From Escherichia coli (GTDB lineage Bacteria; Pseudomonadota; Gammaproteobacteria; Enterobacterales; Enterobacteriaceae): a stretch of 64,000 bases of DNA. A model generated the notes under the pieces. The model saw only the letters and a program-made list of their open reading frames with translations, had not been told where the DNA came from and made no database searches. The position numbers and the translations under genes were made by a program. Location of the stretch: assembly GCF_050920415.1 (NCBI RefSeq), contig NZ_CP169309.1; one strand, written 5' to 3'. Below are positions 61,399-63,353 of the stretch, piece by piece. Every line of letters begins with the position of its first letter. The stretch's first letter is position 1.

Positions 61399-62097
61399 TT
61401 ATACACCTAAATGCGCTAGATCGCTAACGTCTGAATATGGGCAGCTATGGGAGGTAGTCCAGTTTTCAAGGGTCACGTTAGGAGTATAGTCGACCACGAA
61501 CTGACCATCATTTTCAGGATCTTCCCGTCGATGATAAACATTGAGTGTAAATAGGCCTGCATATTTCGCGAGCATATGTTCAATGGTCTCTCTGCTCTTG
61601 AAAAAGTTCGCTTTAAGAACCTCTAACGGAACCTTACGAGAGCGGGCTTGGGCAAAAACCCACGCGTAAGCCGGATCAAAATAGACGTAATTCAGTGCTA
61701 CCTGATAACCAGCCTTCAGGGCCAGATCAAAGTTTCTCTCCGCAATACCTATACTGGAGAAAGTAGAGTCCATAACAATGGGATAGCCTTCAGATAGCGC
61801 TTTTTTGTAGATAAAATCGACCATTCTGGAGGCAGGTCTCTGATAGTCCACAGAGTTCTCTTCATTGTAGTAGGGGAACCACCAGCGAAAATCATCAGCA
61901 TCAATTCGAACAATGTTTGTGATGCCATGTTGTTCTAAAAGACGATTTAAGAGCTCGGTTTTACCTGCAGCAGGCGAACCAGCCATAAACAGGACGTGCT
62001 TGGCATTGGCATTTTTGTTTGCTGTTACGTAACTATAAACGTAAGGGCGAATTGCCTCACCAAACTCAGGCAGTATGGTTTCAAGTTCTTTTTTCAT
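61399..62097 (-). CDS. P-loop kinase of the zeta-toxin / polynucleotide-kinase superfamily (232 aa)
   Basis: Walker A MAGSPAAGKTEL followed by IVRIDADDFR (compare zeta toxin GGQPGSGKTS...VIVIDNDTFK and T4 Pnk GCPGSGKST...NRDDYR), then IVMDSTFSS and ALKAGYQVALNYVYFDP. Confidence 0.55.
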   Translation of the reverse strand: MKKELETILPEFGEAIRPYVYSYVTANKNANAKHVLFMAGSPAAGKTELLNRLLEQHGITNIVRIDADDFRWWFPYYNEENSVDYQRPASRMVDFIYKKALSEGYPIVMDSTFSSIGIAERNFDLALKAGYQVALNYVYFDPAYAWVFAQARSRKVPLEVLKANFFKSRETIEHMLAKYAGLFTLNVYHRREDPENDGQFVVDYTPNVTLENWTTSHSCPYSDVSDLAHLGV

Positions 62098-62261: not shown

Positions 62262-62600
62262 TTACTCGGTCTGTATGCGGTTCATTGCTGAAGTCGCCAG
62301 TTGCGGGTAAATCTGCATCTCTGCGCCGTTTAAGATTCGCGTATTTACGCGCAAGCGCTCGATGGCTTCATTTTGCTGGTGGCTTTCCTTCCTCGCGGCT
62401 ATTCTAGCTATCTGATTGGCTGCTATGGCCTTTGCCGCTGTCATGGAATGCGCCAGAGTCTTATCCGTCATCATTACACGCTGCGTTTCCAGCATGCTGG
62501 AATGATCTCTTTTTGTTGTTCTTGAAGAAGAACTCTTATTCTTCGGTATATCATTTTGACAGGGGGCAGTGTAAGTATCCCTGCAAAACGAACCATTCAC
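62262..62600 (-). CDS. Hypothetical small protein (77-112 aa), upstream of the kinase operon
   Basis: ORF with possible internal start MLETQRVMMTDKTLAHSMTAAKAIAANQIARIAARKE...; helical and basic; 164 bp upstream of the kinase gene. Confidence 0.3.
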   Translation of the reverse strand: MNGSFCRDTYTAPCQNDIPKNKSSSSRTTKRDHSSMLETQRVMMTDKTLAHSMTAAKAIAANQIARIAARKESHQQNEAIERLRVNTRILNGAEMQIYPQLATSAMNRIQTE

Positions 62601-62821
62601 TTTAACAGATATGTCAATTTCCGCTCATCGTTCAAAGCGGACTAGAAGGTTAGCTTGCGTCGGACTTGGCGTTTTTAAAGAAGTGCTGGTGGTGACTGGT
62701 TGTTGTGTTCCATTTCTACAGAACAAAATCACAGAAACTATTCCCAATAGTTTTATTGAATCAATGATGAGACAGCCTCATATTTATCAGGACTGGTGTA
62801 CGTCCAATACAGGAGGTTGTC

Positions 62822-62911
62822 GTGCTGGTTCTCAAATGTGCGCTCGCTATTGCGGCTGTAATGGCAATTTATTGTCTTGCTGTTGTTCTTATGGATCGCC
62901 TTTCTGATTGA
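62822..62911 (+). CDS. 29-aa hydrophobic peptide (MLVLKCALAIAAVMAIYCLAVVLMDRLSD) with perfect Shine-Dalgarno; candidate small membrane/type-I-toxin-like peptide
   Basis: AGGAGG at 62811-62816, 5-nt spacer, GTG start at 62822; single predicted TM helix with polar tail; 210 bp upstream of hok. Confidence 0.4.
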   Translation: MLVLKCALAIAAVMAIYCLAVVLMDRLSD

Positions 62912-63122
62912 TTTTATATTGGCGAGGTGACGGGAGTTAAGTAGGATTGCTGCGGGTGCTTGAGGCTATCTGTCTCAGGCATGAATACCAACGGCAGATA
63001 GAGAAAAGCCCCAGTTAACATTACGCGTCCTGCAAGACGCCTAACATTAATCTGAGGCCATATCTATGACTTGCACACGTAGGTTAGCCTCTTACGTGCC
63101 GAAAGGCAAGGAGAAGCAGGCT

Positions 63123-63353
63123 ATGAAGCAGCATAAGGCGATGTTAATCGCCCTGATTGTCATCTGTTTAACTGTCATTGTGACGGCACTGGTAACGAGG
63201 AAAGATCTCTGTGAGGTACGAATCCGAACCAGCCAAACGGAGGTCGCTGTCTTCACAGCTTACGAACCTGAGGAGTTAGAGACCAGGCGAGGGAGAAATC
63301 CCTCGCCACCTCTGATGAGTCAGGCATCCTCAATGCACCCACACTTAACTTGA
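63123..63353 (+). CDS. Hok/Gef-family type I toxin homologue with a 25-codon C-terminal extension (76 codons to the first stop)
   Basis: MKQHKAMLIALIVICLTVIVTALVTRKDLCEVRIRTSQTEVAVFTAYEPEE aligns with Hok (...[24 protein letters not shown]...). After ...EPEE the next codon is TTA (Leu) and the frame runs to 63353. Confidence 0.75.
   Translation: MKQHKAMLIALIVICLTVIVTALVTRKDLCEVRIRTSQTEVAVFTAYEPEELETRRGRNPSPPLMSQASSMHPHLT

Follow-up and report, generated by a model that had tools for sequence, protein, structure and literature searches.

A 29-codon ORF directly upstream of hok in lambda-like prophages of Escherichia and Shigella very likely encodes a tiny one-helix membrane protein

The small ORF and its surroundings

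The window (the whole 64-kb stretch of DNA analysed here) is 100% identical to three E. coli chromosomes and lies in a lambda-like prophage whose genes follow the order DUF977, hypothetical genes, a zeta-toxin cassette on the minus strand, a small ORF, hokD, a further hypothetical gene, DUF968, RusA and Q (Table 1). According to the original prediction, a 29-codon frame starts with GTG 5 nt after an AGGAGG, immediately ahead of hok, and encodes one hydrophobic helix that ends in a short polar tail; each of these points was borne out. Direct reading and the ORF list give TTGTC as the spacer between AGGAGG and the GTG at 62822, a TGA at 62909-62911 and the product (M)LVLKCALAIAAVMAIYCLAVVLMDRLSD; the Rfam sok match begins at 62954 and the hok ATG lies at 63123, such that the stop of the small ORF is 43 nt away from the 5' end of the hok mRNA leader and 8 nt from the hok -35 hexamer. 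The best 19-residue Kyte-Doolittle window of the peptide scores 2.70, exceeding 99.9% of 914 comparable segments (stop-to-stop, 25-45 aa, within the 64-kb window), and AlphaFold2, run with the family alignment, predicts one unbroken helix from residue 2 to 29 with a mean pLDDT of 91.7. The hokD-like ORF downstream is a pseudogene according to PGAP in an identical strain, and the small ORF upstream of it is intact.

Table 1. Features in and around the small ORF of the window.
Feature	Position	Strand	Remarks
Cys-rich 98-codon ORF, judged spurious	62611..62907	+	dN/dS ~1.0 in overlap
Putative -35 (TTGAAT) of small-ORF sigma-70 promoter	62756..62761	+	same position in 9/13 diverse alleles
Putative -10 (CATATT)	62779..62784	+	low variability; predicted TSS ~62790-62792
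Conserved TACGTC motif, short 5' UTR	62799..62804	+	nearly all alleles including pINV; flanking bases vary
Shine-Dalgarno AGGAGG	62811..62816	+	5 nt ahead of start; read from sequence
29-codon ORF, GTG start, TGA stop	62822..62911	+	encodes MLVLKCALAIAAVMAIYCLAVVLMDRLSD, predicted single-helix membrane peptide
Antisense promoter-like site TTAACT-18-TAAAAT, polymorphic	62911..62940	-	4/13 diverse alleles
hok promoter TTGGCG-17-TAGGAT	62919..62947	+	consensus scan across alleles
hok mRNA leader, sok-target region	62954..63128	+	Rfam RF01794 sok, 108.1 bits, E=4e-25
hokD-like toxin ORF	63123..63353	+	extended by 25 codons, stop TAA -> TTA at 63276-63278

A Shine-Dalgarno (SD) sequence followed by an ORF is unremarkable by itself, because ~1.8 ORFs of at least 29 codons with an AGGAGG-spacer-start arrangement are expected by chance per shuffled 64-kb window. 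It is the comparative data on related loci that carry the 29-codon ORF decisively beyond chance (see below).

Upstream of the small ORF the window holds a zeta-toxin family gene (61399-62097, minus strand) and a small upstream partner (62262-62495, minus strand). This slot is occupied in various loci by the zeta cassette, higBA, QueH, a TPR protein or an ORF6N protein, and since the loci differ here, it is a cargo hotspot bounded by the promoter of the small ORF. The ~130-200 nt upstream of the putative promoter (62623-62755) are ~90% conserved in most loci, whatever the upstream cargo, and we found no coherent ORF or terminator in 62623-62755. Across contexts, the minimal conserved block extends from the TTGAA(T/G) hexamer to ~15 nt past the small-ORF stop.

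The hexamers of the putative promoter are separated by a spacer whose sequence is unrelated between alleles and whose length is constantly 17 nt, a pattern as expected of a sigma-70 promoter, and in the substitution-event profile no non-coding positions of the module vary less than the SD and the CATATT hexamer. From these features we infer, with moderate confidence, that the small ORF has a promoter of its own. The putative promoter is missing in the alleles L009, L099 and L166, in the L013 group and in the Sakai type, and therefore expression from an own promoter is not a trait of the family. No terminator was found in the window between the small ORF and hok, so the transcript probably runs on into hok.

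Coding constraint, distribution and pairing with hok

Homologous loci were gathered from IMG/VR twice, initially with a DNA pattern inside the ORF and then with a 5'-UTR pattern that leaves the ORF unconstrained; the ORF-core pattern had biased the first sample at 24 positions and the test was redone with the UTR-anchored pattern. In the first, ORF-anchored sample, which includes one frameshifted and one recombinant copy, the peptide frame had a dN/dS of ~0.26, against ~1.0 for that of the overlapping 98-codon ORF and 0.67-0.83 for three further frames; the value of 0.37 in antisense frame -2 is taken as an echo of the constraint on the sense frame, because frame -2 has stops in every allele. 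The peptide frame is kept in related prophages, contrary to the lack of conservation that the original prediction named as a refutation: 105 of the 108 UTR-anchored loci have it intact, and an IS3 insertion (L007) is among the three disrupted copies. When the 27 distinct haplotypes of this second sample are joined in a minimum spanning tree, substitution events fall on codon positions 1, 2 and 3 in the ratio 13:10:31 (binomial p=2.4e-4), with 33 synonymous and 21 non-synonymous changes.

More divergent alleles came from a tblastn search of plasmids, from 1.84 billion representative proteins screened with a profile and from the encoding contigs. Among six alleles with 56-85% nucleotide identity, pairwise dN/dS ranges from 0.10 to 0.53, with dS from 0.33 to beyond saturation, and nearly all amino-acid replacements among alleles exchange one hydrophobic residue for another. 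In a nine-allele alignment Ala9, Val13 and Tyr17-Cys18-Leu19 are invariant (rare Cys18 variants occur elsewhere in the sample) and the C-terminal tail (D/E)R(L/F)(S/G)(D/N) is conserved. The pINV and L249 alleles begin with ATG and the rest with GTG, at a constant distance of 5 nt from an SD with a GGAG core, and intact alleles show the SD variants AGGAGG, GGGAGG, AGGAGA, AGGGGG, TGGAGG and TGGAGA, with the core written as GGAG and the 5-nt spacing. Judged by its substitution pattern, the small ORF is shown to evolve as a protein-coding gene under purifying selection.

The Cys-rich 98-codon ORF lies in a different frame from the 29-codon ORF and had been called implausible, rightly so: besides the neutral dN/dS in its frame, of 48 unique homologous versions only 5 retain its start and open frame, and other allele contexts lack its upstream half. 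These data rule it out as a gene, and it should go from the local annotation. Coding on the opposite strand was likewise rejected; antisense frame -0 is open over the 90 nt in most alleles, but the window has no minus-strand ORF over 62836-62913, and frame -0 has stops in L249 and a dN/dS of 0.67.

A 166-nt segment with the small ORF is present in 1,891 of 5,426 complete E. coli genomes (at least 80% coverage), yet PGAP left the ORF unannotated in 40 of 40 RefSeq records sampled across the ranking. The segment also occurs in four phage records (Tritos, Evi, mEp460_ev081 and HannyBb), and the exact 29-aa peptide has been deposited sporadically as 'hypothetical protein' or 'membrane protein', E. 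albertii included. Most copies of the small ORF are 90-100% identical. A scan of GTDB species representatives returned E. albertii and two short MAG contigs labelled Haemophilus and Candidatus Scatousia, so the GTDB species representatives provide no evidence for the family outside Escherichia and Shigella. The profile search of the 1.84 billion representatives yielded 17 matches, all to the same family, with the alleles P0024 and P0026 among them. Because the family is narrow, being confined to Escherichia and Shigella, much of the conservation reflects recent common descent.

With tblastn we detected the peptide on 143 of 72,556 plasmids, 135 of them in the 60-80% identity band, and the two plasmids that we inspected, pWR100 and one E. 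coli plasmid, are of the pINV type. Shigella flexneri M90T pWR100 harbours an intact 29-aa allele with an ATG start that is 79% identical (L128 3001-3190; record 90808-90997, minus strand), and this pINV small ORF has been called by Prokka. The allele sits, together with a decayed hok-leader remnant, 260-350 bp upstream of icsP, and the pINV copy is a prophage fragment within the long icsP regulatory region. In dRNA-seq of Shigella M90T pWR100, TSSs of icsP are tabulated at 90709 and 90726 but none for the predicted promoter of the pINV copy (PMC7132871 Table S3).

The hok leader is at most 120 nt away in 99 of the 108 UTR-anchored loci, and in this prophage region a HOK_GEF gene directly follows each of the distant alleles P0019, P0020 and P0026, the three that had full context. 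The small ORF is also intact at six loci of the L006 type, where hok has been replaced, as well as beside the decayed hok of pINV and the stop-less hok of the window. Most hokD/hokW-type loci, conversely, are without the small ORF, the hok query matching 12,375 places but reaching at least 80% coverage of the query segment in only 1,439 genomes. The pairing of the small ORF with hok is ancestral and tight, and it is obligatory in neither direction.

Many other E. coli genomes contain a match to a 47-nt remnant in which the last 23 nt of the small ORF run into the beginning of the hok promoter. In O157:H7 Z869 (L163 1201-1247) it stands alone between QueH and a cytosine methyltransferase gene, where it marks an old recombination junction.

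The 34-aa homologue of O157:H7 Sakai and its translation

A 34-aa allele, MSDDISLAMEGALAV(V/I)AVVGVYCLVVFLMDRLGN, corresponds to ECs_5710/XECs145 of O157:H7 Sakai (RefSeq WP_001278454.1, 'hypothetical protein') and occurs in 672 complete E. coli genomes, O26 and O111 included, at up to five places per genome. BLASTP aligns it to the window peptide with 54% identity and 75% positives over 28 residues (E=5e-10), and it is also recovered by the family HMM. The similarity runs across the helix and the C-terminal tail, and the position is shared as well: ECs_5710 resides in prophage Sp6 immediately ahead of mok/hok, with DUF968, RusA and Q coming after, and the same position is seen in O26. This placement directly upstream of hok/mok, in the nin-type region of a lambda-like prophage, recurs in the window, Sakai Sp6, O26, L164, L166, L247 and the 99 UTR-anchored loci mentioned above. 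The two alleles thus share a single TM helix and a site, but they differ in that ECs_5710 has an acidic N-terminus (MSDDISLAME versus MLVLK in the window allele), starts with ATG instead of GTG and is annotated in RefSeq, unlike the 29-aa allele. The 29-aa allele can be described as the common unannotated allele of an Escherichia/Shigella small-protein family whose 34-aa allele is already in RefSeq.

Ribosome profiling, named in the original prediction as a check, gives a clear signal for this homologous allele. A RIBOseq survey of Sakai intergenic regions reports for XECs145 in LB a transcriptome RPKM of 79.1, a translatome RPKM of 346.1, an RCV of 4.35 and a coverage of 0.99, and in the BHI control a transcriptome RPKM of 121.3, a translatome RPKM of 150.1, an RCV of 1.14 and a coverage of 0.84 (PMC5597208 S2 Table), to be compared with translation thresholds of 0.25 for RCV and 0.5 for coverage and with a mean RCV of 1.55 for short annotated genes in LB (PMC5597208). 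The call used an upstream start, and the reads may be multi-mapped because Sakai has several near-identical prophage copies. XECs145 is also predicted there to be an inner-membrane protein with one TM helix (PMC5597208 S8 Table). The RIBOseq data on the Sakai allele show that the homologue ECs_5710 is efficiently translated in uninduced lysogens, and the window ORF is very probably translated into a single-pass inner-membrane peptide.

The main texts of the literature that we searched contain nothing relevant on the peptide strings, WP_001278454, ECs_5710 or XECs145. The MetaRibo-Seq supplements hold no match for the peptide, the Pro-SMP finder paper names hokD merely as an example, and the searchable literature does not comment on the fixed position of the small ORF beside hok/sok.

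Candidate roles of the peptide

The resemblance of the peptide to type I toxins (Hok/Gef, Ldr, Ibs, TisB, ShoB, DinQ, ZorO) is plain, as it has fewer than 60 residues, one hydrophobic helix and a short charged tail, and its gene adjoins a bona fide hok/sok locus in a prophage. The original prediction had accordingly pointed to type I toxins, along with small membrane regulators, and had proposed to look for a convergent antisense promoter, and the window does have a promoter-like site on the minus strand (62940..62911) that would drive an RNA antisense to the whole ORF. The site is dimorphic, reading TTTTA or TTTCA just past the small-ORF stop, and TTTTA alleles could make an antisense transcript across the small ORF. 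Most alleles, however, carry TGAAAT at the antisense -10, without the essential A at position 2; the T/C polymorphism kills the -10 in 9 of 13 diverse alleles and leaves the site in four, which rules out a conserved antisense promoter.

A structured RNA could be dismissed too. Single-sequence folds compared with shuffles gave z = +0.15 (62790-62955) and -1.0, neither strand being unusually stable, and the consensus structure of 11 diverse alleles gave z = -0.79 for the sense strand and none for the antisense strand. At a permissive E-value Rfam matched sok alone, which belongs to hok, and complementarity of the small ORF to the hok/sok leader amounts to 11-12-nt chance matches, ruling out that Sok also targets the small ORF. 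Searches with NCBIfam, PHROG and PADLOC returned no toxin model, just noise-level matches to other hydrophobic segments, and the Hok/Gef profile (PF01848) did not match: the precomputed Pfam entry of the homologues is '-' and that of the neighbour gene is PF01848. Finally, the 5' UTR of the small ORF is short (~30 nt), with an exposed consensus SD at optimal spacing.

That the peptide is the toxin of a second type I module beside hok/sok, kept untranslated by a cis antisense RNA, is therefore very unlikely: its size, helix, polar tail and place next to hok are typical, but a conserved RNA antitoxin gene with a promoter of its own is lacking, as are an mRNA kept inert by its 5' UTR or by long-range structure and any sequence or HMM similarity to known toxins, and in growing Sakai cells the homologue belongs with the better-translated small ORFs (RCV 4.35 in normal growth). 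That growing cells translate the homologue so well speaks against strong toxicity in particular, and together with the polymorphic antisense site and the want of structure, complementarity and a toxin HMM it makes a silenced toxin unlikely. On these grounds the type I toxin reading of the original prediction did not hold up.

A different view is that the peptide itself is irrelevant, the DNA or RNA being conserved as part of the hok promoter, for interference or uORF-type control of hok, or as a mosaic recombination junction. The small ORF does end 8 nt from the hok -35, with hok close by in most UTR-anchored loci (at most 120 nt in 99 of 108) and no terminator in between, and the piece of 47 nt that joins the ORF end to the hok promoter is found in many genomes, in one examined case alone at a mosaic junction. 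We regard this view as quite improbable, since the peptide frame alone shows the excess of third-position changes and the low dN/dS, the C-terminal motif persists in the Sakai-type allele although the DNA there and the spacer to hok differ, the ORF is intact where hok is gone, and most hokD/hokW-type loci do without the ORF. That the ORF is decaying, or very young and functionless, and open merely through close kinship of its copies would fit the narrow taxonomic range, the 90-100% identity of most copies and the lack of a TSS at the pINV copy; it is very improbable when alleles at 56-70% nucleotide identity still have the SD, the hydrophobic helix and a frame of 29-34 codons, and when no more than 3 of 108 copies are disrupted, an IS3 insertion accounting for at least one.

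We conclude that the 29-codon frame beside hok is very probably a true gene whose product is a tiny membrane protein with one helix, and we favour, with considerable confidence, a genuine small inner-membrane gene whose product would serve as a lysogen-expressed accessory factor and not as a silenced type I toxin. Within the early-right (nin-type) region the gene has a fixed spot, with a variable cargo cassette ahead of it and hok/sok directly behind. In the window it would be transcribed from its own weak sigma-70 promoter, TTGAAT-17-CATATT, with a TSS at ~62791, and additionally by read-through from the phage early operon, the transcript probably continuing into hok. The peptide is predicted to insert as one helix, with a Tyr-Cys at its centre that does not vary and a (D/E)R(L/F)S(D) tail conserved at the C-terminus, and would act at the membrane at non-lethal levels, as a moron-like accessory factor that may bind or modulate a membrane partner, possibly Hok.

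A stronger version, in which the peptide is a dedicated partner of Hok (an antiholin-like or immunity helix tuning Hok pores) or a superinfection-exclusion factor deployed with hok/sok, appears unlikely, though it deserves mention. The pairing is kept across alleles in which small-ORF DNA at 56-70% identity lies beside nearly identical hok sequences, and this retention despite divergence of the small ORF is compatible with a Hok partner, but no proof of it. If true, hok/sok of lambda-like prophages would be a three-gene unit of small peptide, hok/mok and sok.

Known small proteins offer two points of comparison for the accessory factor that we favour. MgrB, AcrZ, KdpF, MgtS, PmrR and CydX are small single-pass membrane regulators, and KdpF and PmrR have 29 aa. 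The small ORF is like them in size, in its single TM helix and canonical RBS, in being missed by annotation pipelines and, going by its homologue, in being expressed in growing cells; unlike them, and with no homology to them, it is located on mobile prophage DNA and not beside a chromosomal target operon. The peptide may be a small membrane regulator, the other kind named in the original prediction. Lysogen-expressed phage morons and exclusion factors include lambda Bor and Lom, HK97 gp15 and T4 Imm. With these the small ORF has in common a prophage accessory slot between conserved early genes and a predicted membrane location, along with the own putative promoter of most alleles and, for the homologue, expression without induction, but it is much smaller and has no terminator of its own. 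The locus is not a new kind of system. If our reading is correct, a selected small membrane-protein gene in more than a third of complete E. coli genomes is blank in RefSeq, with another copy on the Shigella virulence plasmid and an annotated sister allele in a further 12% of genomes.

In the Sakai-type arrangement the TTGAAT-17-CATATT promoter is absent and ECs_5710 follows another TM ORF in an operon-like manner. This second unannotated hydrophobic ORF of 27 aa (MNWPEAFAITGVAMAIAFLVYVICRWG or MIWPEAF...; L164 2770-2853, Sakai Sp6 L252 2345-2428) begins with an ATG that overlaps the stop of the upstream gene (ATGA), which is DUF551 in L164 and ECs_1518 in Sakai; it lies ~35 nt ahead of ECs_5710, and its composition loosely resembles that of the small-ORF helix. 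A perfect 22-nt palindrome, CGATATGGGAATTCCCATATCG, is found between ECs_5710 and the hok promoter (L252 2575-2596, L164 3004-3025); it has no trailing U-tract and may serve as an operator or as a hairpin for processing or stabilisation.
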